Below are positions 24,233 through 62,019 of a DNA stretch of 64,000 bases, piece by piece. The notes under the pieces are model-generated. The model saw only the letters and a list, made by a program, of their open reading frames with translations, was not told the DNA's origin and made no database searches. Position numbers and translations under genes: made by a program. The stretch comes from a phage. The first letter of the stretch is position 1, and every line of letters starts with the position of its first letter. The stretch lies in the NCBI GenBank assembly GCA_027262695.1, contig GCA_027262695.1_4722.1; one strand, given 5' to 3'.

Positions 24233-24367
24233 GTTAATACTCCAATTAGTTTTTCGATCGATCAAAAGGATAAAATCAGAAGATTCATTTCTTCATAGGG
24301 AAAACACAAGTCGGTTAAGGTTTACTTCTCAAACTCCTTGCGTTCTATCAGTTAGGTAATATAGACC

Positions 24368-25165
24368 TCAACTTTTTTCCAATAATGTCGCAACGGAACG
24401 GGCGAATCGGATAACCTTGTAGTTGCGTGTCTGTGTGACATCTTCCCCATCGCTGTCCTCTTCGGACGGATCTTCCCACGTGAACTCTTGTTCCTCCGCT
24501 TTCTGGAGGTAACGATACAACTGCACCATACTGCGGGCTGTCGGAGAGATCGCTTGAAGTTCAGTTAAGTCATCTTCCGTCAACAACACGTGCGGTGAAC
24601 GCAGCGGTTCCATCGTGGTATTGCATAACAGACGAATCAGAAGATCCACGCATGGAATAATCGAACCTGGTGACGCGATTTCAGGATGCAGCGTATACTG
24701 CCAATATACGGTGTTGTAATACGTCAATACCGCAGGTAACGACGGGTGTTCCATTACACGTGCGATTTGCTGTCTTACGATAGAAGCGCGATCATTCAGA
24801 ACATCAAGCGTGATCTGTTGTGGTTCCATCACCGCCATTGAAATGCCGTATGCGTCAGCCACGCCCAGGATTTCATGAAGGGACTGACGTTCTTCTTCAA
24901 CAGATGTTGTTCCAACGGCTTTACGTCCAGCCAGCTCAATAAGCATGGGTGTAACGGTCTCTTTAACCGCGTTAAAAGAAGCCTGGTAAGCATGCTTGTG
25001 GAGATACAACGTCCAGGCTAATGCACGTTCTGCCGTATGCAGAAGATCAACATAAGACAGATCTTGATAACAAGGTCCGTATACGCTTACGGCAAGCTTG
25101 GTGGCTTTCTCGGATGCAGCCATAATAGCATCTGGTGATTTAGGCATATCGCGTTCTTCTTGCAT
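24368..25165 (-). CDS. hypothetical protein
   Basis: ORF track, 265 aa. Confidence 0.6.
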   Translation of the reverse strand: MQEERDMPKSPDAIMAASEKATKLAVSVYGPCYQDLSYVDLLHTAERALAWTLYLHKHAYQASFNAVKETVTPMLIELAGRKAVGTTSVEEERQSLHEILGVADAYGISMAVMEPQQITLDVLNDRASIVRQQIARVMEHPSLPAVLTYYNTVYWQYTLHPEIASPGSIIPCVDLLIRLLCNTTMEPLRSPHVLLTEDDLTELQAISPTARSMVQLYRYLQKAEEQEFTWEDPSEEDSDGEDVTQTRNYKVIRFARSVATLLEKS

Positions 25166-29550: not shown

Positions 29551-30651
29551 TTATTTGGCTTCGTTAAAATAAATATCAACGGCACGTTCCGTTGCGTAGA
29601 GAAGACCCAGATTCACGGTCCCTACCACTTCCGGTGAACCGATGATACGGTTAGCGATACTGGTGCCACTGAAGATAGCATCAAGGGTGTGCCCGTCTTC
29701 GGTTTTGTTCACACCATGACCCACGGAAGAGACAACGGATTTTGCCTGTGCTGCGAAGGTACCTTTATCCCCCATTCCCGCACCCAGGTCGTAACGCATG
29801 AAAATACGGATGGCGATCTGGTTCTCGCCTAACGGATTACCGTCTATTCTCACGTTACTGTTGTTGATGCGTCCCGTTGTTGCTTCGTTGAGTTTCAGTT
29901 CCTTAACGCGTTTAGCTCGCGCTTTATCCGCTTCACCCACAAGTGCTGCCATGGTTTCACTCATGTCTTCAATCTGGGCACGATACAACACATCGATCTG
30001 TACGACTTCACCATGCACGTCAGCCCGTGGGTTATACTGACTCATACGGCGTAACGCTTCAACCGCTTCCTGACTTTCATCGCTCAGATCGGTCGCAATC
30101 GGTTCTTCCAGTGTTGCCAGGATCGTCCGAGGTTCAACATGATCGCCGATTTTCACCAAACCACGAATGTTGAGATGAGCGTCAACAATGAGCGTACGAC
30201 TCTTAATCGATGGTGTTACGAGACGATCAGCGAGATTGTCGAAGATATACGAACTGTCCTCGTGCGTTTCTGGAATATCCAAAATACCAACCAAAGACAG
30301 AACGCCTGCGCGCCAAACCACCTGACCTGGGTTCCACCAATCCCGTTTGAAATAAAGACGATGGAATACCACTACATCCTGATCCTTAACGCGATCACCA
30401 ACTTTATAATCGGTAATGAGATCGTGAGGATAATACTTACCTGGTCCTTTCCCGATTATCGTACCGAGTTGGAAAACCTCTTCCCCTAATTCTGGATCGT
30501 CGTATTGTATCGTAAGCGCTGTTTTGGTGACCTTCTTCACAACACCATCGCCTTGAGCAGCTGCTGCGAAGAGTTTACCAACACGATGCGCGATAACAGT
30601 CTCACCACCTGTACGCCATGGTTGTACGTCGTAACCTTCAGCAGCTATCAT
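29551..30651 (-). CDS. RNA polymerase beta-subunit segment, 3' exon (GDK catalytic-region motif)
   Basis: 366 aa ORF; ...YDLGAGMGDKGTFAAQAKSVVS aligns to the E. coli rpoB GDKMAGRHGNKGVIS region, and IGDHVEPRTILATL / PRADVHGEVVQIDVLY align to upstream rpoB segments; the frame stays open upstream to a stop at 30796..30798, so the exon probably starts between 30652 and 30795. Confidence 0.6.
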   Translation of the reverse strand: MIAAEGYDVQPWRTGGETVIAHRVGKLFAAAAQGDGVVKKVTKTALTIQYDDPELGEEVFQLGTIIGKGPGKYYPHDLITDYKVGDRVKDQDVVVFHRLYFKRDWWNPGQVVWRAGVLSLVGILDIPETHEDSSYIFDNLADRLVTPSIKSRTLIVDAHLNIRGLVKIGDHVEPRTILATLEEPIATDLSDESQEAVEALRRMSQYNPRADVHGEVVQIDVLYRAQIEDMSETMAALVGEADKARAKRVKELKLNEATTGRINNSNVRIDGNPLGENQIAIRIFMRYDLGAGMGDKGTFAAQAKSVVSSVGHGVNKTEDGHTLDAIFSGTSIANRIIGSPEVVGTVNLGLLYATERAVDIYFNEAK

Positions 30652-31148
30652 GCGGTTGTGCTGTATACCTATAAATACGAGACGCTTTGGCGAAATCCAG
30701 CAAAATACAATTACTGTGCGTCTAGATTGTTCAGATAAGGTCGTTAATCTTATCCCGGTGGTGATGATAGGTGCATCACCAACCCGCTTGCGCTCTCACG
30801 CAAGAGCAGACTATATCACATCTCGTTTCAAACGGTGCTTCTTCAGCGCCTCAACGAGAGTTCACTTCTTCCCAGCGCATCCAGCGCCATTCTCTTATCC
30901 AAGGAGAATGCCTCACTCGAGGGGTACAGGGGGATGAATCCCTTAGTCGTTGAACCGTCACCCTAGAACGTTTCACAACGATCCTTAGGCGATTGGCTGC
31001 GGATTGTCCTTAAGCTATTATCTGTTTTATAACCATACCGTCTTTCTTTTCAGAATCCGTTTTGGTCGATAACAGCGATGGATGTCTTCGCAATTCAGTG
31101 AATCTCATCTACATGTCGCCATATAGACGGACCCTGCTATTAAAAGCG
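30652..31148 (-). ncRNA. group I self-splicing intron (boundaries approximate) in the RNAP beta gene
   Basis: Minus strand carries an R-like element GGTTCAACGACTAAGGGATT (30956..30937) and an S-like element TGATATAGTCT (30818..30808) that can form P7 (GACTA/TAGTC), followed by a P9-like hairpin (30806..30786); no ORF >60 aa in the correct orientation. Confidence 0.55.
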
Positions 31149-34100
31149 TTAATCATCTCTGTCGGCAGCAGGTACTGCAAGTGCCGATGTACTCATTATT
31201 GACGAGCTACCATCCGTTTTCTCGTCGTAAGGTTTTGTTTCACCGTATACAGACACGATGTTTGCGTTAGGTGCAAGATAAGCAGAGATACCTACATCGC
31301 CACTGTCCTTCGTACCTTCAGATACCACACCGATGTCTGACTTGTCGTATTCACGATCGCGTGCGCGTCGAAGCGATGTTTTCGAACGACCCCCGATACC
31401 GGTCATCGTTGCTTCTTCACCCTGCTTGATATCCAACATCGGGTTGGTTTCATCGATGACAATAGAAGCACTGTCGTCAAGGATTTGGTTCCAAACGCTC
31501 ACCGGACTGATTGAGATCTTCTGTCGGTTGCCTTGGCTGCTGTTCTCGTTTTGACGAATAGCACCAACCAGATCCTTATACACCAACTCAGCGAACTTAT
31601 CGTACGTTTTGAAGCGCTGGTAGTTCACATCGTTCGTGTTCGGTGCCCAATCATCCAGAAGCAGTTCAACAGCACGTAATAACAACATGGCGAAATCAGT
31701 CGGTTCACCCATGTTCTGCAATAATGTACGACTTACCGGGTCGACGAAAAGACGCTCCATGAGTTCAAGTTCGCGAAGATGACGAACCTTAAGACCTGCA
31801 CCATCGACAACGTTAAAATAGATATCCCGATTGTCAAAAGCGCCGCGAGCGTAACCGATGTAATTACGGTATTCGTTAAATCCACCCAACAACAATGTCG
31901 TCATTCGATCATCTTTACTGAAGATCAAACTTTCATCGTCGAAGCTTACCGCGAATTCATCCGATGCTAAGCCCATACGAGAACCACGAACTACCGTACG
32001 GTAGTTCGCTTTAAGATGTTCTAATAACGGAGTAAGTCCGCCTAGGTAACTTAGCACAACGCCAACCGGGATACGTACGCCCATGAACTCAAGGTCAGCG
32101 GCTTCGATAGGCATCTTCGCGGCATTGATACCGAAGAAATCAGGGAACGTTCCAACCGGCGTTGGGGTTTGATTCGGTTCGTAAACGTACAACTGATTCT
32201 GATTATCCACCGCCAGGAATTCACCGTTGGTGTTTTTGGCGAACGTTAAGAATCCACCCGCCAGCTGTTCGGTGAACAAATCTGCGCCGATATGTTCTGG
32301 CAACGTTTTGATATCGAGGCGTATGTCCCAATCCGCAAATTGAATTTGGGTGTAGTTACGCGCAAGCACAGCGAAGTAATACGGAACTTTGACAGCCGGA
32401 TCAAAGACGTTACCACGTTTTAAGGTGGTTAGCGGGGAGGTTTTATCGTAATACATCGCTGTGAGTTGACGTGTTAACCAACGACCAGCATTATTCACGA
32501 CACGCTCTGAACGTTTAACAAACACCTTACCGTAGGCGGTACTCAACGCAACTTCGGATGATGATACCTTTCTGATAGGTTTATCAACACGTTGTTTACG
32601 CATCCGGTATTTAATACCGTTAACGACATAAATACCGTCCTTACGAACCTTCGGTAACATCACCGGGAACGTCGTTGGAACACCACCCACCGGAGCCAGC
32701 TTGATCGTGATGACCTGGTAATCACCCATCACGTCAACAACATCTTCAACTTTATATCCGGTAACAGGATAGCCTGCTTGTTGCACTGCCACAACGGCCG
32801 CTGCGATGTCCTTTTGCATCACGTGTTCAACGTAATGTTTATCCCACACCGCAAGCGTCGATTTACATAGGCTCTTATCGACGATAACATCCGCTTCCGG
32901 CATAACCTTTGCTGGCGCTAATTTCGCGGCTTTTGGTTTAACCTCAACGTATTCAGCAAGCGTTAGTCCAGAACCGTCAGGTGCTTCAATTTCATGAATC
33001 GCGTCAGCGTTACGCATCGCGGCTTTATATTGAACGCCGCTTAATTGACCCGCATCCGCGAGGTCGCTCGCACGTACCAACACCGCATCGGATAACGACT
33101 GAATATATTCACCGTGCGTTTTCGGCAACGTTGCCGCATCGAAGACATCATCTTTTTCTTCCGGCACGTCGTCGTTGACGACCTCAAAGAGATCATCGGT
33201 GATGTCTTGATCTTCGTCCGGTTGAAAATCGGGCTGAACTTCAACGCCCGGGACTTCACGAACATCTTCGAACGCACGCTCAACAACCGCGTTCCATGCT
33301 TCAGCGTCGTCATCCTCATCCGATCCTCCGATCAACTCGCTTTCCAGTTCATCGGGGTCAAGAACGGTATCGAGATCCTCACCGTTAGGAAGCACGACAT
33401 CACGTTCATCGTACTCCGCATCGGGACTGTCTGCGAGAATATCACGCTCCTGACGAAGAACCTGCTCCTCTTCTTGTTTCTGTTCTTCTTCGTTGGCGCT
33501 CTGCGACCACAGACGGGTTACCGCCATCATCCAACGACGCTGGAATGTTTCAAGCGTTGTCTTATCAAGTTCCTCGCCTTCCTTCGCCAAACCCGAACGC
33601 CATTCTTCCATTAAACCAAGATTCAGGGTAAAGAAATAGACGCCGTCCGTAAATACAACGTTAAGCTTATCCAGCGAAGCACGATCCAATGACGCCATCG
33701 TACTGTTCTCACGATCGACACCTAACCAGCGGAAGAAGTCAAAGAACGACAGCTCCTCTGAGGTGGCAAAATTCATGAGGTTATTACGGGTTGGGGCTTG
33801 TTGTGTCGTACGCATCAACGATATCTTCGGTAACGTCGACGGGATACGGAATAACAAGAACTGCTGACGGTCGCTTTGCTTGGCGATCTCGTTTGCTTGC
33901 GTCCAAATCGTTTTACGCACGTTGAACCACTCATCATACCAACGTGTTAGCGTCGGACGATAGATGTACATGTGGTTAAGATGCGCATAGTTAGCCACGA
34001 TCTGGGCGTTGATGTTCTTCTCAACCTTGCTAAGATCGGTGACCAAACGAAAACGACGATGCGATGCACGGTAATCCAGTTTCGCACGCGGTAGCTGAAA

Positions 34101-34358
34101 TCGCTGATCGCGTCGAGGCGCGCCTTGCTTGGTTGCGAGGTCATCCGCGAACGATATCCAAAGCTGTGCACTTTCTTTGCTCAGCATGTATTCGTTTTCA
34201 GGAGGACCTATTAACGAAGGATCGGTTGCTGTGTAATGATAAACAGCATAACGCGGCAGCTGCAAAAGCTGCACCAAACGCAATCTAGGTGATAATAACT
34301 CTTGATAACGTCGTACACCGAATTGTCTGTAGTAATCAAGGTATTTAAGTTTTGCCAT
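31149..34358 (-). CDS. RNA polymerase beta-like subunit, N-terminal and middle part (5' exon), with a long N-terminal extension
   Basis: 1069 aa; C-terminal region NPMLDIKQGEEATMTGIGGRSK...VSVYGETKPY aligns to the rpoB fork segment [26 protein letters not shown]...LSVYAQTNEY; own ATG with a GGAG RBS; acidic low-complexity insert. Confidence 0.65.
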   Translation of the reverse strand: MAKLKYLDYYRQFGVRRYQELLSPRLRLVQLLQLPRYAVYHYTATDPSLIGPPENEYMLSKESAQLWISFADDLATKQGAPRRDQRFQLPRAKLDYRASHRRFRLVTDLSKVEKNINAQIVANYAHLNHMYIYRPTLTRWYDEWFNVRKTIWTQANEIAKQSDRQQFLLFRIPSTLPKISLMRTTQQAPTRNNLMNFATSEELSFFDFFRWLGVDRENSTMASLDRASLDKLNVVFTDGVYFFTLNLGLMEEWRSGLAKEGEELDKTTLETFQRRWMMAVTRLWSQSANEEEQKQEEEQVLRQERDILADSPDAEYDERDVVLPNGEDLDTVLDPDELESELIGGSDEDDDAEAWNAVVERAFEDVREVPGVEVQPDFQPDEDQDITDDLFEVVNDDVPEEKDDVFDAATLPKTHGEYIQSLSDAVLVRASDLADAGQLSGVQYKAAMRNADAIHEIEAPDGSGLTLAEYVEVKPKAAKLAPAKVMPEADVIVDKSLCKSTLAVWDKHYVEHVMQKDIAAAVVAVQQAGYPVTGYKVEDVVDVMGDYQVITIKLAPVGGVPTTFPVMLPKVRKDGIYVVNGIKYRMRKQRVDKPIRKVSSSEVALSTAYGKVFVKRSERVVNNAGRWLTRQLTAMYYDKTSPLTTLKRGNVFDPAVKVPYYFAVLARNYTQIQFADWDIRLDIKTLPEHIGADLFTEQLAGGFLTFAKNTNGEFLAVDNQNQLYVYEPNQTPTPVGTFPDFFGINAAKMPIEAADLEFMGVRIPVGVVLSYLGGLTPLLEHLKANYRTVVRGSRMGLASDEFAVSFDDESLIFSKDDRMTTLLLGGFNEYRNYIGYARGAFDNRDIYFNVVDGAGLKVRHLRELELMERLFVDPVSRTLLQNMGEPTDFAMLLLRAVELLLDDWAPNTNDVNYQRFKTYDKFAELVYKDLVGAIRQNENSSQGNRQKISISPVSVWNQILDDSASIVIDETNPMLDIKQGEEATMTGIGGRSKTSLRRARDREYDKSDIGVVSEGTKDSGDVGISAYLAPNANIVSVYGETKPYDEKTDGSSSIMSTSALAVPAADRDD

Positions 34359-34548: not shown

Positions 34549-35198
34549 TTCGCCTCAGTTCGCTACGCTGAGACCGCCTGCATGGATACGTACATGACAG
34601 GCTGCTTGCACTTTCATGCAAGAGGAGACTATATCAAACCGGCAGCTTCACCTTCTCGATCGTATCGAGAATGCGGTGCTGAAGTATTCTTCAGCAGCAC
34701 CTGCTACGGTAACCTACACTTCGAAGACGCTTGTCCTCTACAGGGTGGTAAATCCCTTAGTCGTTGAACCTGCGTTGTTTCCCATTCTTGGTTGCAAGAA
34801 TGCCGTATTACTACGCAACAACCAGGCTGCTGATTGCCCATTGTCTCGCACCTTAGCACCGCTTACGCGGCTTTTCTTTCAGCCTAAGCCTCTTACGGAG
34901 GTAGTGCATCTCAACTGTTGTTTCTGCCTTTCGGCACCCCATGGGTCGTTGAGCTTTAGGGGTTCCCAGCAATTCGTAGGTTTTTCAAGCACTCCCTTTC
35001 GGGAATACCGGACAACTTCCCTTGAAAAAAGTCTTTATTTTTCAAGGACTTATCCCCGCCGAGTCCCTGGAGGTACGGGCTCGGAATGCAAACCGTTTCT
35101 ACGAACGATGCTTTTTGTTTCCAATCAGGGTATTCCCATGCGATATATCGTTCGTCAGTAATCGGTTCCCAATTACTATCAAGTTCTGTCTTGGGAGA
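34549..35198 (-). ncRNA. group I self-splicing intron (boundaries approximate) in the RNAP beta-prime gene
   Basis: Minus strand carries R-like GGTTCAACGACTAAGGGATT (34770..34751), S-like TGATATAGTCT (34636..34626) and a P9-like hairpin (34622..34605) that shows a compensatory pair change relative to the other intron. Confidence 0.55.
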
Positions 35199-46676: not shown

Positions 46677-46758
46677 CACGTCCTCCTGAAAAAGAAAAAA
46701 GAAATACGGCATAAAGCCTACCCACACAATGGTGGGTAGGCTAAGATCAACATCGATG

Positions 46759-47851: not shown

Positions 47852-47875
47852 CCTCCATGACTGTTATCATGGAGG
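47852..47875 (+). promoter_or_regulatory. leader hairpin CCTCCATGA-CTGTTA-TCATGGAGG with a nearby T-tract upstream of gene 47918
   Basis: Perfect 9-bp stem with a T7 run about 18 nt downstream; overlaps a CTATATTAC box on the minus strand. Confidence 0.3.
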
Positions 47876-47917
47876 TAATATAGTCCTGATATTTTTTTCA
47901 ATACGGAGAATAGAATA

Positions 47918-53824: not shown

Positions 53825-54256
53825 TTATTTGCTGTATAGCTGTACCACTCGTTGTGTCGTAGGAACGCAGACTCTTACCAGAAGCTTTTTAATCTCCTGA
53901 CGAATCGTTGCTTTATCATCATAATAAAGCCATGGTGGAACGCGTTGCATTATGCGCTGCACGGCTTCATCGTAGTTCGTCGTCTCATTGAGTAACGTCT
54001 CACTATCCAGATCTTTCCATGCAGTAATACCAAGCCGCGCAGCAAACATCAGCGCTGAAACTGACTCCGCTATCTCCAGTCGCTCATTCATATCCGCAAG
54101 ACCTTTTAGCATGATGTAATTATCATCGTGCCGATGTAAGGTACCAAACAAACTTCCAAAGAGGAGGATGCGTTTGGCTTTTGCGGTTAAGAGGAACGAC
54201 AGGAGAGCGTGTTTCAACGGTTGTTTCTCACGTTCTACCTGTTCGACCATCTCCAT
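53825..54256 (-). CDS. hypothetical protein
   Basis: ORF track, 143 aa. Confidence 0.55.
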   Translation of the reverse strand: MEMVEQVEREKQPLKHALLSFLLTAKAKRILLFGSLFGTLHRHDDNYIMLKGLADMNERLEIAESVSALMFAARLGITAWKDLDSETLLNETTNYDEAVQRIMQRVPPWLYYDDKATIRQEIKKLLVRVCVPTTQRVVQLYSK

Positions 54257-54259
54257 TGA

Positions 54260-55786
54260 TTACTCCAACACATAACGTGGGTTACTGTATATGTTAGCCC
54301 ATATCCCCACATCGTTACCTGATTCAATAATCACAGCAAAACGAAACGCAATATCAGACTCACGATAGGTTACTGCATACGCTTTCGTTTCGGGCGATGC
54401 TAAATAGCTCAAGTTCAGACGTTGAGGCAGGTCTAACCCCAAGGACATGGTACATGACGTAACACCTTGTTTATCAGGGTTCAGTCTGTAGTTCATGTCC
54501 ACTTTTAGGCTTTTCGTCACCTGCGTAATCGCACTATGCACTTTGGTAACCGTTTTGCCTTTCTTATCCTTTTCTGTTTCGAAAAGAACGTCGGTAATTT
54601 CGGTTACGACCAGACGCGGTGTGGATTCACGGTTATTGTCCAGCCATTCATCCAGTAACGTCTTCAAGAAGTTCAAGGAATCAATCGCACGCCAAGCAAG
54701 GTTCGGCGGATTACATGCTTCCATGAGAATCGCGGTGTTCGATCCACCCAACGGAAGATGCACGCTCTTACCGAGGCCCGTTGGACGCATGGTAAGATCG
54801 CACTCGCCCTCAAGAATATCGCGATGGTATTGACGATGATGAAGGTTATCGATGTATGCAATATACACTGATTCCGTTGTCCCATGCTCTAATACCCGAG
54901 ATGCATGCATACGCATAATCTCGACAGCATCATCTGGTTTGCTTAGATAGACAACGCTATACGCACTATCGCTGATTCTTTTCCCTAATTCAAGACGTCC
55001 TTTATTATCTTTATCGGTGTTACCACCGAAGTAGATATAGCGACCATCTTTCGCACGTTCTTGCTGCTGGTTGGTGGTGAAGTAACAGCGCGAGAACGTA
55101 AAGAACGGGCTTATTTCCGGCTCGGGGTTCCAATAACCTTTCGCTGGAAGCTCTCGGCGTATTTGGGTTCGTACAGCCCAGTCCTGGTTTTGTGACAGAT
55201 ACGTTCCACGCGTCGCCAGCATATCGGCACGCTCGTTACCGATATTGCCCTCGTGTCCAGGAACGTATCGCAGCGAAATATCGATAGCGTCGCGCTTTGC
55301 ATCCCTGATTGCACTATCGAGTTTTCGCCACCGTTCAGCATTCAACAACGGTTTATTATCGGATTTCACCCAGTTGTTTTCTCGCCAGTTAGCAAGATGG
55401 TTGGTGGTACCTACAACAACATATTGGCTATCCGACAATAGCTGAATCCGTTTTGCCCCCTTCGCTTTTCCAAGTTCAATCGCACGAATCGCTGCGTCCA
55501 ACTCCGCCTGATTGTTCGTCACGTTGAAACCTAACGCTTCTAACTCATCCACGTACTCTTTGGGTTCGACCAGCACAGCGTCTTTAGGAAAGTCGAGTTT
55601 AGGATCGACGTAACCGTATTGCGTCGGTTTGGGCTTTCCACTTTTTGAAGGTTCCAAGGTGCCTTTCACTTCTTTCATCAAATCGTAGGTGTAGCCATGT
55701 ACACCATAGCCACCGTACCCACTTGACGTTGGACGGGATCCCCCGTCACAATAGAAAACGGCACCAAGCTCGTTATTTCCTGCCAT
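54260..55786 (-). CDS. RNase HI-domain protein with a ~320-aa C-terminal extension of unknown function
   Basis: ORF 54260..55798 trimmed to the Met (MAGNNE) with a GAGGT RBS; RNase HI motifs CDGGSR, NNQAELDAAIRA, LLSDSQYVV, VPGHEGNIGNERADMLA in the N-terminal ~190 aa. Confidence 0.65.
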   Translation of the reverse strand: MAGNNELGAVFYCDGGSRPTSSGYGGYGVHGYTYDLMKEVKGTLEPSKSGKPKPTQYGYVDPKLDFPKDAVLVEPKEYVDELEALGFNVTNNQAELDAAIRAIELGKAKGAKRIQLLSDSQYVVVGTTNHLANWRENNWVKSDNKPLLNAERWRKLDSAIRDAKRDAIDISLRYVPGHEGNIGNERADMLATRGTYLSQNQDWAVRTQIRRELPAKGYWNPEPEISPFFTFSRCYFTTNQQQERAKDGRYIYFGGNTDKDNKGRLELGKRISDSAYSVVYLSKPDDAVEIMRMHASRVLEHGTTESVYIAYIDNLHHRQYHRDILEGECDLTMRPTGLGKSVHLPLGGSNTAILMEACNPPNLAWRAIDSLNFLKTLLDEWLDNNRESTPRLVVTEITDVLFETEKDKKGKTVTKVHSAITQVTKSLKVDMNYRLNPDKQGVTSCTMSLGLDLPQRLNLSYLASPETKAYAVTYRESDIAFRFAVIIESGNDVGIWANIYSNPRYVLE

Positions 55787-55836
55787 TGTAAACCTCATTA
55801 ATCATTGTCCGTATGATAGCCCAAAGTTGTACGGTA

Positions 55837-56388
55837 TTACCGATTCTGTTCTGTTGATGTCGATTGATTGCGATTGACCTTCATTGACCTTAATTTTCCT
55901 CCGTTAATCACGCATTGATCGCGTTGTTCGACAGTAGTGAGGCTATTGCAGACGTAGTAAGTATCAATGAAACGATCCACGCGTTCTTGAAACTTCCTTT
56001 CATCAGCTTGTTCTCGTTCGTAAGTTCGTAACGCACGATCAACTTCACCCTGCAGGATCCGGTTCTGTTCAACCATACTGTCGATTAAACGGCCTCTTAC
56101 TTCGTTCGATGTGTAGAGTTGACGAATCAGTTCTCGGTTGGTATCACGCGCATAACGCAATGTTGCATTCTCCTGACGTAAGCTATTAACATCAGCCATC
56201 AGGGTAATGATTTTTTCGCCAGCAAATAACGTCACGATACCCAATACGATGAAAAAACCCGTAATCAAGAATATCGAGGACTGCCGAGCTCCATCTCGAC
56301 GAGAACGTGCAGGCGGTCGCTTACTTCGCCGAAACAGCTCGCGAAGAAAAGGGAAAAGCCAGGGCAACGCCTTGAGTGTAGTAAACAT
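55837..56388 (-). CDS. membrane-anchored coiled-coil protein (i-spanin-like topology)
   Basis: ORF 55837..56532 trimmed to Met 49 (MFTTLK) with an AAGGA RBS; basic N-terminus, one TM helix (IFLITGFFIVLGIVTLFAG), then a coiled-coil region containing Cys. Confidence 0.45.
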   Translation of the reverse strand: MFTTLKALPWLFPFLRELFRRSKRPPARSRRDGARQSSIFLITGFFIVLGIVTLFAGEKIITLMADVNSLRQENATLRYARDTNRELIRQLYTSNEVRGRLIDSMVEQNRILQGEVDRALRTYEREQADERKFQERVDRFIDTYYVCNSLTTVEQRDQCVINGGKLRSMKVNRNQSTSTEQNR

Positions 56389-56442
56389 GCGTGTGTCCTT
56401 GATAGTATGAAATTTCCAATACAACTTAACCGAGGACGTCGA

Positions 56443-57783
56443 ATGATTAATATTTTTGGTTTTTATACGTACAAAGGGTACGCTAATAACCACCCAAAAA
56501 CCACGGCGAAATTCGGTGAGTTCAGTCAGCACAGTGCTACGTTCAGTCGCGAGATCGGCATCTATACCAACACGGCGTACGCACGTACGACCTTATTAGT
56601 GTTGAATGCAGAAAACGAAGCTGGTGAGGCACAAACGCTGGATGACGACACCGCAGGCCGCATTCTTCAGGTTGGTCAATGGTTGCTGGAAAAAGCCTCA
56701 TCGGGCGAAATCCAGGAAGACAGAGACCAAGTTATCAGCTACCTAAAAGACGACTTCACAACGTATCTTGATTCTATCGACATCCCAACACCCACCACCG
56801 ATGGGAAAGTCTATCTACCGGCGTGGATCAGTTTCAAGATAACAGCCACCGGCGATGTTGTCAAGATTTGGTTGTCTGATAGCGTATTCCAAAGTCAATA
56901 TCCAAAATACGAATATGAAGTCGTTCCTCCTGTTCCTAAGGATCAGTTAGATACCTTCTTCGAAGATCTGGCAACATTGAAGAAACTGGTTGACAGTCGA
57001 AGCAGCGAGAAACTGACCGAAGAAATCAACGAGGTGCGCGACCAATTCCCAGACACACAATTGTGGACGAAAACCTATAAAGCGTACGATTACACCGACG
57101 ATTCGAAATACATTAATACCGATTGGACGGTGATCATCTACGGTGCGGCAGGTAACAACATTGATAATATCAAGGAGTTCCTGCAAAACTGGGTTCTTAG
57201 CAACAGCACGCACGGACGTCCAGACTGGGAAATCGTTCTGCCGGATCTTTTTATTCCGACGGAACACATCTTCATCCCAATCTGGAACCGCCACAGCGCC
57301 CCGGAAATGACCAATCAGGCACGTATCTATAGTCCTATCTTCGATGATTCGTTGATGGATACCTACCTGAAAAACTTTGCTGATGGTTACGGTGAAACCA
57401 CCGAAGTCCGTAAATCGCTTCAAGCTGTGCCGACGTTGTGGCGCTCGATCGGTTTCTTAAGCGTTGGTAACTCACGTAACCGTGACGGTAAGCTTAAGTT
57501 CTACGATCGCTGGCCGCAATACGCACTTATCAGCACAACCAGTATCGACATTAACCGTATCGACGATGCGACACGTGAATTCATCACCTTCACTTACGAA
57601 ATGCTGAAACTGGCAGAATCGCTCACCGAAGACGATCCAGTACCGTTGGGCTATAGTCGTGTTACGCGTGGCAGCAATAGCTTCTTAGCGAAAAGCCACA
57701 ACGATGTTCAGTATCTCTTCTTAACAAAAGAAGCGTTCCTGAAGAAAATGCCGGATGAAGCCGACACACCTGTTGGAGGTTGA
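56443..57783 (+). CDS. hypothetical protein
   Basis: ORF 56407..57783 trimmed to the Met (MINIFGF) with a GAGGA RBS. Confidence 0.6.
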   Translation: MINIFGFYTYKGYANNHPKTTAKFGEFSQHSATFSREIGIYTNTAYARTTLLVLNAENEAGEAQTLDDDTAGRILQVGQWLLEKASSGEIQEDRDQVISYLKDDFTTYLDSIDIPTPTTDGKVYLPAWISFKITATGDVVKIWLSDSVFQSQYPKYEYEVVPPVPKDQLDTFFEDLATLKKLVDSRSSEKLTEEINEVRDQFPDTQLWTKTYKAYDYTDDSKYINTDWTVIIYGAAGNNIDNIKEFLQNWVLSNSTHGRPDWEIVLPDLFIPTEHIFIPIWNRHSAPEMTNQARIYSPIFDDSLMDTYLKNFADGYGETTEVRKSLQAVPTLWRSIGFLSVGNSRNRDGKLKFYDRWPQYALISTTSIDINRIDDATREFITFTYEMLKLAESLTEDDPVPLGYSRVTRGSNSFLAKSHNDVQYLFLTKEAFLKKMPDEADTPVGG

Positions 57784-57785
57784 TT

Positions 57786-58412
57786 ATGGCTGTAACACGC
57801 ATGACGCCAAGTCCCGGTGCGGTCGGGGTATTCACAGTATCAGCGCCGTTCTCCGTTGGTGCATCGACGTTATATACCGTTACAGCGTTGCGAAGATTCA
57901 GCGAAGTCATCGGTAGTGGAATCGATCTATTTACGGAACTATACGAACCGTTATCGATAGACAAATCCACTTTCGAAGCGCATCTTGAAGCAAATGCTTA
58001 TCTCGTCACGTTACAGCCGGATTATGGTGCGCCAGTACTGGTACCAGATACGTATATCACGTCGTACCCAAAGAACGATTCCTTACGGTATCGCCGCATT
58101 ATTCTGGGTATTGATTTCGGGCCTCTTCCTCCCGGTCTTGACCTTTCGTATTTAACAACGATATTGAAAGGTAAAGCCAGTGATATTCTTGGTGTCGAAC
58201 CTGAAGTTAAAACGATGGAAATCACTCTCGATGATACCGTTACTCAGGAACAACATCAGATAAACGAAGCCCGTCGTCAGGCTGCGATAAAAGAGCGAGA
58301 TACCATTTACGCACGCTGTGAAACACAAGAGAAGCAGATAACGGCTTTACTTGCAACCCAAAAGCAACTTATCAAATTGCTTCAAGACGCCGGAATCAAT
58401 CCGACACCTTAA
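57786..58412 (+). CDS. hypothetical protein
   Basis: ORF 57780..58412 (TTG start in track) trimmed to the ATG after a GGAGGT RBS. Confidence 0.55.
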   Translation: MAVTRMTPSPGAVGVFTVSAPFSVGASTLYTVTALRRFSEVIGSGIDLFTELYEPLSIDKSTFEAHLEANAYLVTLQPDYGAPVLVPDTYITSYPKNDSLRYRRIILGIDFGPLPPGLDLSYLTTILKGKASDILGVEPEVKTMEITLDDTVTQEQHQINEARRQAAIKERDTIYARCETQEKQITALLATQKQLIKLLQDAGINPTP

Positions 58413-58418
58413 CATATT

Positions 58419-58450
58419 CCCTCCTCCAACCCGTAAGGGAAGGAGGAGGG
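58419..58450 (+). terminator. terminator hairpin, exact copy of the 45571..45602 element, followed by CTATGCCGTAAAG
   Basis: Identical 32-nt CCCTCCTCCAACCCGTAAGGGAAGGAGGAGGG directly after the stop of gene 57786..58412. Confidence 0.5.
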
Positions 58451-58481
58451 CTATGCCGTAAAGCAAAAAAAAAAAATGATA

Positions 58482-58514
58482 GTCACGAGCCCTCCAATGA
58501 AGGAGAGCCGTGAC
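58482..58514 (-). terminator. rho-independent terminator for minus-strand gene 58522..59223
   Basis: Minus strand: GTCACGGCTCTCC...GGAGGGCTCGTGAC hairpin followed by a T13 run. Confidence 0.55.
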
Positions 58515-58521
58515 CGTCAGT

Positions 58522-59223
58522 TTAGGATGCGGATAATCTAGCGTACTTTTGTCGAATATGGTTCTTACGGCGAACTTCGTCATCCTCGTCGCGCCATTCG
58601 AGGTAAGCTACGAATCGCCGTAACTGCGCTGCAGTCATTGTTGCTGACAGATCTTCTATTTCTAAAACAACATAGTGAACTTCGCCGACACCATCGCAGT
58701 CAGTATAACGGAATACCAAAAGATCCTTATCATATTCCGTGATAATAACCTTGAATCGTTTCTCGAACAAATAAAACAGTTCCGATTCGATAATCATCGG
58801 GATAACACAATTATCGTCACGTTCAATGATTTTCATCATCACACGTAACGCACGAAGCGCGTGATGGGCGAACGAACCATTAAATCGTTGATTCATTGCT
58901 TGTCCCACATCAACGATCTTTGTTCCTGGCCAGGGACGGATTACTGATTTCGGTGGTGTAAGACGGCAGCGGTACGCTTGTATAAACAACAGAATATCGG
59001 CGACATTAGGAAATTCTTCCTGGTCTTTGTACAGCTTACGGATAATATCCGGGATCGTAGTCAACAAATATTTCCTATCGCCTCCTACTTTCTCGAGATT
59101 AGCGATATGCCCTTCTACCACTGGCTGGTAAACGAAATTATACCAGTGGTGGTATTTTGCAACGTGTTGGTATTTCGGGATGAAATTAAGAACAGCGTTC
59201 ACTGCGCGTTTTAATGGGTTCAT
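58522..59223 (-). CDS. hypothetical protein
   Basis: ORF track, 233 aa. Confidence 0.6.
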   Translation of the reverse strand: MNPLKRAVNAVLNFIPKYQHVAKYHHWYNFVYQPVVEGHIANLEKVGGDRKYLLTTIPDIIRKLYKDQEEFPNVADILLFIQAYRCRLTPPKSVIRPWPGTKIVDVGQAMNQRFNGSFAHHALRALRVMMKIIERDDNCVIPMIIESELFYLFEKRFKVIITEYDKDLLVFRYTDCDGVGEVHYVVLEIEDLSATMTAAQLRRFVAYLEWRDEDDEVRRKNHIRQKYARLSAS

Positions 59224-59237
59224 CAGAAGAATCCTTC

Positions 59238-59672
59238 TTATGTTTTAATATGCACATCGTCAATCCCCTCGGTAATCCAGCCGATGGGAAGGACAATCGT
59301 TGTTATCGTGTTATGGGTGTAAGGATTAAGAAAATGGAAATAGTAATTTGTGTTAGATTGTTCGATGCGTAGGTCGAGCTGTGCGTCTTCAGGTAACCGT
59401 AACCAGGCACCGTACAGTTCATTAAACTTACGCTGAATTTTACCTGGGTTCATTGGAACCCCACGACCACGTTGATGTAGCTGACGTAATGATTCAATCA
59501 AACACTCAGAGATACCCGTTGTCGTTCCGTTATCGCTTGTATCGACAACGATGAACTCTCGTGACCCACGACCAAGATAAAAACCAGCAACAAAAGCTGC
59601 AGCAACAAAAAATATCGTACCGATACCAATATACCAATAGTAAGTATCCATAACGGCCTCACTTATACCCAA
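59238..59672 (-). CDS. hypothetical membrane protein (N-terminal TM helix)
   Basis: 144 aa; N-terminal YYWYIGIGTIFFVAAAFVAGFYLG hydrophobic segment. Confidence 0.55.
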   Translation of the reverse strand: MGISEAVMDTYYWYIGIGTIFFVAAAFVAGFYLGRGSREFIVVDTSDNGTTTGISECLIESLRQLHQRGRGVPMNPGKIQRKFNELYGAWLRLPEDAQLDLRIEQSNTNYYFHFLNPYTHNTITTIVLPIGWITEGIDDVHIKT

Positions 59673-60190
59673 TAGTCGGCAAGCGGTTTCACCTTATTAA
59701 CGGGTAATTGTACTTTACCGATATTCTCTACATCTGCATCCGCGTAGAGAACAATTTTATCATTGTCTCTTTCCCAACGAATAATAAATCGACCAGGAAG
59801 AAGATTACCCTGTTCAAGAGACGCAGTAACCTGCTGCGTTAACACCGACAACCAAGCAGGCATCAGTGTTGCAATATCTAAGTCATTTGACCATTCAGCA
59901 CGTTGCTCCACAGGGCGTAACATCCGTTGGATGGTGCGTTGAACCGTCGCAGTGATATAGCCTTTATCTTCATCACTGATCGGATCCGGACGAGACACAA
60001 AACGTTCAGTAGGCTTGTGGGTAATATGTTCATGCAATTCGATGAGTGGTGTTGTCATAGTACTCGCTCCGTCAGAATGTAATTGGGTAACCCGCAGGGT
60101 TGTCTGCATGGTATTCAGAAGCGCAAAAGCGCCATAAACAACAACGACACTAAGTACAACCAAAACAGAAATCATTAACGTATATTGCAT
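59663..60190 (-). CDS. hypothetical membrane protein (N-terminal TM helix)
   Basis: ORF 59663..60238 trimmed to Met 17 (MQYTLMISVLVVLSVVVVYGAF) with a GAGGAG RBS. Confidence 0.5.
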   Translation of the reverse strand: MQYTLMISVLVVLSVVVVYGAFALLNTMQTTLRVTQLHSDGASTMTTPLIELHEHITHKPTERFVSRPDPISDEDKGYITATVQRTIQRMLRPVEQRAEWSNDLDIATLMPAWLSVLTQQVTASLEQGNLLPGRFIIRWERDNDKIVLYADADVENIGKVQLPVNKVKPLADYWV

Positions 60191-60291
60191 TGATATCTCC
60201 TCTTCATACGCATCTTGAAGATTAGTTAAAATCAACAAAAGAAAAAACGATATAAAGCAAGGTCCTCTGATATCAGAGGACCTTGGATCAA

Positions 60292-60948
60292 TTAGCTTGC
60301 AGCTTCTTCATTTGTTTCAGGTTTGCTTCCCCCTAACAAACCGTCGAACAGACCCGTATGTTTCAGGTAGAAGAGAGCGATAGCGCCCATTGCTGCTGCG
60401 CTCGTCGCCGTTAATGCAACCCCTGCACGATACTGCCATTTACGGTCAGGCTTTTGATCAAGCGCCATACGACGCATGTATTCAGCCTCTGCTTCATTCC
60501 GATGAATTTCGGATTCGGCCAAGCGGGCTAAGGTATCGCGGTCAAGGTTATCATAACGTGCGTTCATGGTGGTTTCCTCTTGTTTGGAAGTTGATTGCTT
60601 GGTAGATTCTTGGTCAACAGTCGTTTCGGTTGGTTCAAACGGCTGGTTGTTCATTTTCTGATCTTTATTGGACATGATAGGCTCCTTCGATTTTTGAGAC
60701 GAAATTGATTTAAACCATCGTGGATGGCGGTATTCGGTTTTACATGTGCAGTTAAGTTTCTCGTGCAGGAAAGCGTAAAAACGTTTTGCGCCTACACGTA
60801 AGGCTTTCAGCATTACCCATCCACGAGCACTCAAACGGTGTAGCTGTTGCGGTATGTCGAGTTTCCTAGCCAAGCGAAAGTATCTTTCAATCACTTCGAT
60901 AGGAAACCATTGTTGTTCCACATCGGTGAGACTGAAAGTCTTATCCAT
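60292..60948 (-). CDS. hypothetical protein with C-terminal hydrophobic segment; strong internal in-frame start at 60675
   Basis: ORF track, 218 aa; internal MSNKDQ start has a GAAGGAGC RBS; C-terminal ALTATSAAAMGAIALFYL is TM-like. Confidence 0.5.
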   Translation of the reverse strand: MDKTFSLTDVEQQWFPIEVIERYFRLARKLDIPQQLHRLSARGWVMLKALRVGAKRFYAFLHEKLNCTCKTEYRHPRWFKSISSQKSKEPIMSNKDQKMNNQPFEPTETTVDQESTKQSTSKQEETTMNARYDNLDRDTLARLAESEIHRNEAEAEYMRRMALDQKPDRKWQYRAGVALTATSAAAMGAIALFYLKHTGLFDGLLGGSKPETNEEAAS

Positions 60949-61098
60949 GATTGAAATCTCGCTGGCTTACTTCACTTAAGTAATATAGCCGTGAAAAATG
61001 TTGGATTAAGTTAAATACCGCAACCGCAGCTAATTTTATAGGCTTTTAGCCTAAACCAATCATCTTCGGAATCATCATCTTTGAAACAGGAATCTATC

Positions 61099-61920
61099 AT
61101 GGAAAAAGTATTTGTTTGTAAGTTGTTTACCAACGGCAATAGCCAACCAATGTATCTGACCGATCCTGTTCTAGGTAATCGGAACAGTACCGTATTCAAA
61201 GAGGCTTTCGAATACGCTAAAAATAAAGCCGTGAGAACACTGACGTCTGATGACTGTATCGACGGTATCACGTGGGCAGAGTTAATCGGTGATGCCGTTC
61301 GACACTTCGTTCGGGATGCGAGAAAACGGGAAATCTGTCTCACGACTATTGTTGTGCGTGAAAACGCAGAAATTTTATCAAACGTTTTGGTTGATTTTAA
61401 TGACGTTTGCGTGTTTAATCCAGAGAACACGTTTGAACAATACCTTACTGCCCTGAACAACCAGCTCGGTAAAGATATTCATCCCGAATTCGCCAAGTTA
61501 ACGTATCAAGTGCTTTTTAACGACGTCGATCCAAACACAAAGATCAACACCAGCTTATCGCCCCTGGTAAAGAAATACGGATCGGTTCTTGCTACGGCAA
61601 CACCCACCACCGATGGCGGTTATGATATCGAATTGGATGGTCCATTAAAAGAACAAGAACCTACTGGGATTCGGGCGGTACATCACAACCTCGTCGTTAA
61701 ATCTGATGGATGCGATGAACATTACGCTATGATAAACGATGAAAACAATTACCGTTTAAGTCAAGCGATTGGTGTTCTACGCTATACCGAACCCACTGTT
61801 GTAGACGATTATACATCGACAACAACACACACCACGTGTTTCATTTTCATCTATCCCAATGAAAGTGTATACATTACCGACTGCTATGGCAATACCGTAG
61901 ATAGCTTACGTCGTTATTAA
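61099..61920 (+). CDS. hypothetical protein
   Basis: ORF 61081..61920 (TTG start in track) trimmed to the first ATG (MEKVFVCK). Confidence 0.55.
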   Translation: MEKVFVCKLFTNGNSQPMYLTDPVLGNRNSTVFKEAFEYAKNKAVRTLTSDDCIDGITWAELIGDAVRHFVRDARKREICLTTIVVRENAEILSNVLVDFNDVCVFNPENTFEQYLTALNNQLGKDIHPEFAKLTYQVLFNDVDPNTKINTSLSPLVKKYGSVLATATPTTDGGYDIELDGPLKEQEPTGIRAVHHNLVVKSDGCDEHYAMINDENNYRLSQAIGVLRYTEPTVVDDYTSTTTHTTCFIFIYPNESVYITDCYGNTVDSLRRY

Positions 61921-61926
61921 TCATCA

Positions 61927-61952
61927 AGCCTGTCCTTCGGGGCAGGCTTTTA
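61927..61952 (+). terminator. rho-independent terminator, UUCG-loop hairpin plus T4, followed by ATGCCGTTAAA
   Basis: AGCCTGTCC-TTCG-GGGCAGGCT then TTTTATGCCG; identical to the reverse complement of the 3000..3028 region. Confidence 0.65.
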
Positions 61953-62019
61953 TGCCGTTAAATAACTGGAATAAGAATTAACAAAATAGGAAAATGGTGT
62001 GAATATAACACAAAGGAGG

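Follow-up and report, generated by a model that had tools for sequence, protein, structure and literature searches.

Three small membrane proteins of a Goslar-like jumbo phage appear to belong to two separate transcription units, neither devoted to lysis

A stretch of 64,000 nucleotides of phage DNA (NCBI GenBank assembly GCA_027262695.1, contig GCA_027262695.1_4722.1; hereafter the window) carries, between positions 55,837 and 60,190, three small genes that we call A, B, and C and that had been tentatively proposed, from their sequence, to form a lysis or membrane-remodelling module. We analyzed these genes together with a neighboring fourth one, D, which was absent from the original prediction. 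On balance, we favor the view that this prediction ran together two transcription units that, in a Goslar-like chimallivirus, are unrelated to each other, with A acting as a tether or sensor and D, C, and B as an early accessory complex, neither of them being involved in lysis. In such a scheme, A would head a nucleus-dependent operon encoding an RNase-H-like protein (gp155/Nlp2 in phage PhiKZ) as the Goslar-lineage version of PhiKZ gp156.1, and its family would represent a separate periplasmic tether or sensor rather than a lysis spanin. The unit formed by D, C, B, and a homologue of Goslar gp001 would be transcribed before and independently of nucleus formation. Its three membrane proteins would then assemble on the cytoplasmic side of the inner membrane and serve host take-over, superinfection exclusion, or counter-defence, and not holin/spanin/endolysin release.

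The region from 55000 to 61000 is 93.7% identical to Escherichia phage vB_EcoM_Goslar, a jumbo phage that forms a nucleus and belongs to the Chimalliviridae, and the window spans both ends of the Goslar record. The relevant features are the following.

55837..56388, minus strand: A, 183 aa; orthologue Goslar_00247 (RefSeq HOV27_gp189), 90% identical
54260..55798, minus strand: RNase-H-like protein homologous to PhiKZ gp155/Nlp2; gene located 38 nt downstream of A
53825..54256, minus strand: last gene of the operon of A; Goslar_00245, phrog_9853, at the position of PhiKZ gp154
58522..59223, minus strand: gp001 homologue, soluble, 233 aa; last gene of the early cluster, no family match
59238..59651, minus strand: B, 137 aa; orthologue Goslar gp002
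59663..60190, minus strand: C, 175 aa; orthologue Goslar gp003
60258..60285, minus strand: strong intrinsic terminator between D and C, composed of a 12-bp stem (CAAGGTCCTCTG/CAGAGGACCTTG) and, after it, a T-rich tail
60292..60948, minus strand: D, 218 aa; orthologue Goslar gp004
60970..61012, minus strand: early promoter motif AACTTAATCCAACATTTTTCACGGCTATATTACTTAAGTGAAG upstream of D

A is divergent from a gp157-type virion gene, and two plus-strand virion-type genes and the gp001 homologue lie between A and the B/C pair. For the timing of expression, we turned to their Goslar orthologues. Supplementary Table 2 of the study on the Goslar early phage infection (EPI) vesicle reports RNA sequencing (RNA-seq) at 30 min with or without knockdown of ChmA, which halts infection at the early vesicle stage, and the resulting values are bimodal (bioRxiv 10.1101/2023.09.20.558163). 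The log2 fold changes upon knockdown given there are listed below, with the class that we derived from them (all from bioRxiv 10.1101/2023.09.20.558163).

gp001: +0.17 to +0.40, early
gp002 (B): +0.31 to +0.61, early
gp003 (C): +0.33 to +0.53, early
gp004 (D): +1.20 to +1.28, early
gp005-gp007 (neighbors): -5.3 to -7.6, nucleus dependent
Endolysin gp024: -4.7 to -5.4, nucleus dependent
Holin-like gp085: -3.8 to -5.6, nucleus dependent
HOV27_gp189 (A): -6.3 to -6.9, with reads falling from 429-508 to 2, nucleus dependent

The three proteins thus do not form one module, A being both separated from B and C by intervening genes and assigned to a different temporal class. Homologues annotated as virion structural proteins had been named as a finding that would refute the original prediction; by the data on Goslar virions, A, B, C, and D are not virion proteins. 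The orthologues of A, B, D, and gp001 were not among the matches listed for the Goslar virion by liquid chromatography coupled to tandem mass spectrometry (LC-MS/MS), and the orthologue of C was represented by a trace only (one peptide, ~0.17-0.41 copies/virion).

The promoter of the early unit is in good agreement with these data. The TATATTAC core starts 39 nt upstream of the ATG of D, with a position weight matrix (PWM) score of 56.2. Early promoters of PhiKZ have this core as their published consensus, and the longer pattern agrees with the one given for 201phi2-1 (PMC7058600 Table 2). Both hallmarks of an early-class promoter, the TATATTAC core and an upstream T-rich block, were found in front of D and in front of its homologue in the sister phage L025. 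The extended motif occurs at 12 sites in Goslar, all on the coding strand and 10 of them intergenic upstream of a gene, one of the 12 lying directly upstream of chmA; the other two, at 166094 and 201969, start within the 3' end of the gene before them. The PWM also retrieved TACATTAC variants, located upstream of gene blocks that are ChmA independent in the RNA-seq data. Since the blocks predicted by the PWM to be early (gp014-021, gp037-040, gp044-047, gp182, and chmA) all fell into the early class, we consider the motif validated. Within the window, copies consisting of a T-rich block and then CTATATTAC were observed at 24346-24388, 47865-47907, and 60970-61012 (minus strand). Each of the three lies on the coding strand and upstream of the minus-strand gene that follows, and the equivalent Goslar sites, where checked, precede ChmA-independent genes.

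In the early cluster, the promoter is followed by D, the terminator, C, B, and the gp001 homologue. Five of these elements, from the promoter to B, are kept in the same order in the L012/L025 sister phage at 25 to 30% identity (B, 30%; C, 25%; and D, 26% in L012), and L025 harbors an early-type motif before the D homologue and a hairpin plus T-run after it, at the same position as in the window. The Goslar annotation also has a terminator between D and C, at the corresponding place. No early motif specific to C and B was detected; both genes are located past this terminator, and no promoter could be defined for them. The start of B, by contrast with the earlier call, is most probably ATG 59651, which has GTGAGG 5 nt upstream and corresponds to the Goslar annotation; the alternative TTG at 59672 lacks a Shine-Dalgarno sequence. 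B (previously 59238..59672) therefore begins 11 nt after the stop codon of C, and the overlap between the two genes that had been reported disappears. The Shine-Dalgarno sequence of C is GAGGAG.

The prediction of one hydrophobic helix in each of the three minus-strand open reading frames (ORFs) was confirmed by hydropathy (Kyte-Doolittle, 19-residue segment). A, B, and C each harbor exactly one strongly hydrophobic segment, with means of 2.54 for A (residues 39-57), 2.15 for B (residues 8-26 of the ATG form), and 2.75 for C (residues 7-25), and such a segment was found in only 7 of the 68 "greedy" gene calls of the window.

A starts with a conserved amphipathic motif (LKALPWLFPFLRELF), followed by a basic stretch, the transmembrane (TM) helix at residues 39-57, and an ectodomain predicted to be helical. 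Five K/R residues are present in the 15 residues before the helix versus two after it, and by hydropathy and charge bias A is thus predicted to have the N-terminal TM helix and the N-in/C-out orientation expected from an i-spanin. We infer that A is inserted N-in/C-out in the inner membrane, with a predicted helical stalk of ~125 residues in the periplasm. The description of A as i-spanin-like held for the basic N terminus, the single TM helix, and the presence of two cysteines (C147 and C159), but these cysteines lie outside the conserved, predicted helical region. The conserved core corresponds to residues 1-112, and in a 62%-identical sister group (P0011-P0015), the C-terminal third is not conserved and the cysteine pair is missing. 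The coiled coil of the earlier description was not confirmed: a continuous a/d heptad register is readable by eye over residues ~60-120, a crude heptad score did not exceed that of shuffles (z=0.4), and Pfam returned weak leucine-zipper-type matches below the cut-off. A profile search against the PDB sequences gave no match for A. No spanin family was matched by A in Pfam, PHROG, or NCBIfam, while the same search matched PhiKZ gp141 to phrog_7584, annotated as "Rz-like spanin," at 8.6e-70.

We also searched for an o-spanin partner. No lipobox ORF was detected in any frame between 55.7 and 56.6 kb, nor in or next to B and C, and the scan recovered the PhiKZ o-spanin gp141.1, its positive control, as well as an ORF embedded in a PCH45 gene. 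The absence of a lipobox-bearing o-spanin, already noted for this region, was thereby confirmed. In 50,697 phage records, tblastn with A and C found Goslar as the sole match. A word-indexed protein search with A returned near-identical relatives and one further sister group, the 62%-identical one mentioned above.

Relatives of A emerged when gene position was considered. A is the first gene of the RNase-H-like operon; no terminator-like site was found by the terminator scan between A and the RNase-H-like gene, no promoter could be defined for A, and no hairpin plus TTATGC[CT]GT element lies upstream of it. An A-type gene is located between the RNase-H-like gene and the divergent gp157-type virion gene in all 10 chimallivirus lineages inspected (Goslar, the metagenomic sister lineage L012, PhiKZ, 201phi2-1, SPN3US, PCH45, Simmy50, PhiEaH1, 2050HW, and FLC4-5C). 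In four of them, PhiKZ, 201phi2-1 (gp242/gp241), SPN3US (gp204/gp205), and Ralstonia phage FLC4-5C (gp60/gp59), the next gene encodes a lipoprotein. Goslar, PCH45 (YP_011108451, gene at 73.6 kb), PhiEaH1, 2050HW, Simmy50, and L012 have a single membrane protein and no lipoprotein gene.

PhiKZ gp156.1, a protein of 96 aa, harbors the N-terminal motif TIKALLFVWPFLK, compared to TLKALPWLFPFLR in A, followed by a TM helix and a further helix, and the N terminus of gp156 (MSRKFFLILLPLISGC) is a lipoprotein signal. By blastp, A and gp156.1 matched with E=0.007 for the pair over the 13-residue N-terminal motif only. When the Goslar-type profile was compared by hhalign with the PhiKZ/201phi2-1/PCH45 proteins, a probability of 81% (E=1.2e-5) was obtained over the N-terminal 66 columns, and hmmscan of A against phrog_14813 gave no significant match. 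Judged from its location and its first residues, A is a positional and probable N-terminal homologue of PhiKZ gp156.1. Both share the slot between the gp157-type and RNase-H-like genes, the operon partners, and, as does gp156, nucleus-dependent expression, and the gp156.1 group and A share the motif T[IL]KAL..[FW]PFL[KR], a single TM helix, and a predicted helical ectodomain. Unlike the PhiKZ pair, the Goslar-type arrangement lacks the lipoprotein gene, the RNase-H-like gene following 38 nt after A, and A (183 aa) is about twice as long as gp156.1. PHROGs files gp156.1 (phrog_14813) and gp156 (phrog_15897) under function unknown, the gp156-type lipoprotein family is annotated as hypothetical in every one of its 73 phage records, and no characterisation of a gp156.1-type protein was found in the literature searched.

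One operon partner of this family is a nucleus-maturation factor. PhiKZ gp155 (Nlp2) is essential for this process, ChmA dependent, and high at 20 min, and it is co-transcribed with gp154, gp156, and gp156.1 (PMC12571901). By transposon sequencing (TnSeq), the PhiKZ genes 154-157 are without disruptive insertions, although polarity is possible. We also considered single-gene A-type proteins as fusions of a gp156.1-type anchor with a gp156-like Cys...helix...Cys region; this is a reading of the sequence only, which seems plausible in the case of 2050HW and PhiEaH1 but weak in that of Goslar, and it was not retained. As a separate observation, in FLC4-5C (LC819009 56647-60189; L028 1208-4750), the A-type, lipoprotein, and RNase-H-like genes and a gene for an SLT transglycosylase with a signal peptide form one same-strand run.

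Could A nevertheless be a spanin-type protein that disrupts the outer membrane after holin and endolysin action, whether on its own, together with a partner that escaped recognition, or as a gp156.1-anchor/gp156-ectodomain fusion? We regard this as unlikely, although several features speak for it. A has predicted type II topology, a long, presumably helical ectodomain, and a C-terminal cysteine pair; it is nucleus dependent, as are gp024 and gp085; no other spanin candidate was found in Goslar; the downstream lipoprotein gene of four lineages corresponds to a "separated" spanin architecture; and the Ralstonia phage operon includes a secreted SLT. A thus has a topology and a timing compatible with a lysis role. 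However, no o-spanin partner was found around A, A matches no Rz-like family, and its cysteine pair and C-terminal third are not kept in the sister lineage. Compared to two-component spanins such as lambda Rz/Rz1 and PhiKZ gp141/gp141.1, A has the gross layout of an i-spanin and nucleus-dependent expression but lacks an embedded, overlapping, or adjacent o-spanin and lies outside a lysis cassette, within a replication/nucleus-maturation operon and not beside a holin or endolysin gene.

Phages with bona fide spanins carry A-type genes as well. The PhiKZ lysis cassette gp141-gp144, which comprises an i-spanin, an o-spanin, a class IIIB holin, a regulator, and an endolysin, was validated by complementation, and its spanin pair gp141/gp141.1 was validated experimentally (PMC12894885). 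Except for gp143, the genes of this cassette appear essential by TnSeq. PCH45 encodes, besides its A-type gene, a candidate i-spanin (YP_011108437) at 55.2-55.7 kb with an embedded lipobox ORF. Because PhiKZ and PCH45 also carry genuine Rz-type spanin pairs, for which the A family would be no substitute, we read this family as distinct from the lysis spanin. The embedded ORF of PCH45 (NC_091964 ~55214-55534, minus strand; L018 15215-15535) encodes 106 aa with a lipobox (LVGC) in MMLIACLTMVSLVGC, out of frame within YP_011108437, and appears to be an Rz1-type o-spanin as far as its sequence tells. Based on gene order, we infer that YP_011108437 is the "gp54 Rz/spanin" of a Tn-seq preprint.

We then considered the early proteins. 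B consists of a 5-residue acidic N-tail, a TM helix (~6-26) directly followed by GRGSRE, a linker, two helices, and three strands, and contains the conserved motifs SECL and EGIDDV. C is built of an uncharged 4-residue N-tail, a TM helix (~5-25), a linker of ~45 aa predicted to be disordered, two helices, and three strands. D harbors a large soluble N-terminal part, one TM helix (~175-195), and an acidic tail of 23 aa. In both lineages, basic residues are absent ahead of the helix of B and C and number one to three behind it. This positive-inside bias favors an N-out/C-in orientation with the folded part in the cytoplasm, and the basic N-flank and short acidic tail of D favor N-in. The sequences thus suggest that the bulk of B and C is cytoplasmic. 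Periplasmic exposure would be tiny, limited to the N-tails of 4 to 5 aa in B and C and to the 23-aa C-tail of D, with the folded parts predicted to sit at the cytoplasmic face. The early, ChmA-independent class and the predicted cytoplasmic bulk both argue against the lysis role that had been suggested for B and C.

AlphaFold2 predicted a TM helix, a disordered linker, two helices, and three strands for both C and B, with low confidence (predicted local distance difference test (pLDDT), 59.6 and 52.8, respectively). Despite their common order of elements, hhalign detected no relationship between B and C (probability, 0.2%), and we do not claim paralogy. Scans of A, B, C, D, and gp001 against Pfam, PHROGs, and NCBIfam retrieved nothing above threshold. 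A word-indexed protein search with B and C found near-identical relatives only, a full HMMER search with D, covering 1.84 billion cluster representatives, returned no more than three relatives, all of them divergent, and scans of IMG/VR with the D and B alignments found only Goslar-like contigs. Detectable relatives of B, C, and D, as far as such searches reach, appear confined to the Goslar lineage and its sister lineages.

The possibility that D, C, and B form a holin/antiholin system, with D as a class IIIB holin like PhiKZ gp142 and B, C, and gp001 as regulators, seems very improbable to us. Like the class III holins (T4 gpt and the class IIIB PhiKZ gp142), B, C, and D are small and have a single TM helix, thus displaying the at least one TM domain typical of small holins; D furthermore is built like gp142, with a large N-domain predicted to be cytoplasmic, one TM helix, and a short tail, its helix is rich in small residues, and the D, C, and B genes are tightly packed. 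Unlike these holins, B, C, and D are not expressed late and do not cluster with endolysin or spanin genes, the endolysin gene gp024 being ~12-15 kb away from the cluster, outside the window. D has an early promoter, and gp001-gp004 are ChmA independent as opposed to the nucleus-dependent endolysin. Moreover, B and C are predicted to be N-out/C-in, and the alignment of D with gp142 scored z=1.0, with 54 of 300 shuffles scoring as high. Finally, gp085, which is nucleus dependent, has two TM helices, and has relatives near Rz-like spanin genes, is a better holin candidate than D.

A second alternative is that B, C, and D act on the EPI vesicle or the envelope, being inserted independently of Sec and helping, through their cytoplasmic domains, to hand over the genome to the nascent nucleus or contributing to the bulging of the envelope in Goslar infection. 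We give this proposal a low probability. It would be in line with their early, ChmA-independent expression, which the genes gp098 and gp182 share as early genes, and with the minimal translocated segments, which fit YidC-type or spontaneous insertion, as established for Pf3-coat-like and tail-anchored proteins. In addition, Goslar delivers its genome into a membrane vesicle, and bulging of the infected cells is seen (bioRxiv 10.1101/2023.09.20.558163). On the other hand, the trio is limited to the Goslar lineage and its sister lineages, while EPI vesicles and the nucleus are found family wide, so that such a core step should use core genes. The structural models of B and C, with their low pLDDT and, for C, no Foldseek match, are uninformative in this respect.

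Similarly doubtful is a broader scheme in which the Chimalliviridae would possess a second, spanin-like envelope module not involved in lysis, consisting of a gp156.1-type stalk and often a gp156-type lipoprotein, kept across the whole family and co-transcribed with Nlp2. The inner-membrane part would work alone in Goslar, and D, C, and B would separately decorate the cytoplasmic face of the EPI vesicle or inner membrane.

We thus return to an early accessory complex of D, C, and B as the preferred explanation. Early phage membrane proteins serving exclusion or take-over include T4 Imm, Sp, and RI and T5 Llp. By analogy only, B, C, and D resemble these in being small, early, lineage-specific, membrane-anchored proteins of a virulent phage; unlike in T4 RI and Sp, the bulk domains of B and C are predicted to be cytoplasmic.

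Several points weigh against a tether or sensor role for A and an early accessory role for D, C, and B. The timing was taken from Goslar orthologues that are 90 to 93% identical, and the single 30-min comparison separates early from nucleus-dependent genes, not middle from late ones. The orientations rest on hydropathy and a small charge bias, amounting to a difference of one to three charges for B and C. A Foldseek search with the low-confidence model of C gave no match in the PDB (best E, 0.79), and our functional assignment of the early cluster is guesswork based on its class properties. The gene run including the SLT gene in FLC4-5C hints at a tie between the A family and cell wall lysis and is the only such hint. 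Lastly, no spanin pair was found in Goslar, with neither an Rz-like homologue nor a lipobox ORF beside or inside any TM gene, so that we cannot account for the disruption of the outer membrane, and i-spanin topology is seen in A alone.

These results prevent a wrong lysis annotation in a Goslar-type phage, and no recognisable spanin pair was found in the Goslar lineage. The A-type protein deserves attention for its constant slot, for the lipoprotein gene beside it in four lineages, and for its tie to the Nlp2 operon.

Other lysis candidates of Goslar lie outside the window. Two genes encode candidate endolysins, the GH108-like, nucleus-dependent gp024 and the SleB-like gp098. The latter (NC_048170 110508-111005; L009 1508-2005) is a hydrolase with an N-terminal signal peptide (MQGILHTLILGLVMLLITPFSQA) and is early (log2 fold change, ~+1). 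An early secreted peptidoglycan hydrolase was unexpected, and it might be linked to the bulging of Goslar-infected cells.

The product of gp085 (NC_048170 93878-94447) has 189 aa, a cytoplasmic N-domain, and two TM helices, and it is a homologue of PCH45 YP_011108434 (E=1e-10). Its relatives are adjacent to Rz-like spanin genes in Totoro and KpXa_1 and ~1-3 kb away from them in PCH45 and Ea277G. None of D, Goslar gp085, and PCH45 YP_011108434 was significantly similar to PhiKZ gp142. Since it does not resemble gp142, gp085 is a candidate by position only and, as such, the best one for a holin in Goslar-type phages. In Goslar, a clean lipoprotein signal (MKKLCAIILGMLMVLSLGGC) was found only in gp088 (NC_048170 97923-98426; also outside the window), a protein reported at several hundred copies/virion and unlikely to be an o-spanin.

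Two further Goslar proteins, gp182 (NC_048170 165504-165968) and gp094 (108183-108761), also encoded outside the window, are single-pass proteins whose N-terminal TM helix is followed by basic residues, like that of B and C. The promoter of gp182 is nearly identical to that of D, and the gene is ChmA independent. Goslar thus seems to encode a small group, a family by topology, of early proteins anchored N-out/C-in. The membrane-anchored set gp002-gp004 and gp182, together with the secreted hydrolase gp098, provides candidates for the vesicle-to-nucleus stage, superinfection exclusion, and bulging.

Two group I introns (Rfam RF00028; 51 and 58 bits) were also detected in the window, at 30787-31153 and 34605-35037 (minus strand). 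The latter is the counterpart of the intron annotated in Goslar at 211817-212245. The former seems to interrupt the homologue of gp207, a 4347-bp RNA-polymerase-beta-like gene that is intact in Goslar, leaving ORFs 31149-34358 and 29551-30651, and would thus be an additional intron compared to Goslar.

Finally, we observed a recurrent composite element, made of a GC-rich hairpin and then TTTATGC[CT]GT, at ~61920-61960 (plus strand) and at 46714, 25268, and 3005 (minus strand) of the window, as well as at many sites in Goslar. In many cases, the next start codon follows at a distance of 15-40 nt, and the element, from its composition, resembles a terminator and a late (TATG-type) promoter joined in one. 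The copy located after D is a variant, TTTATATCG.

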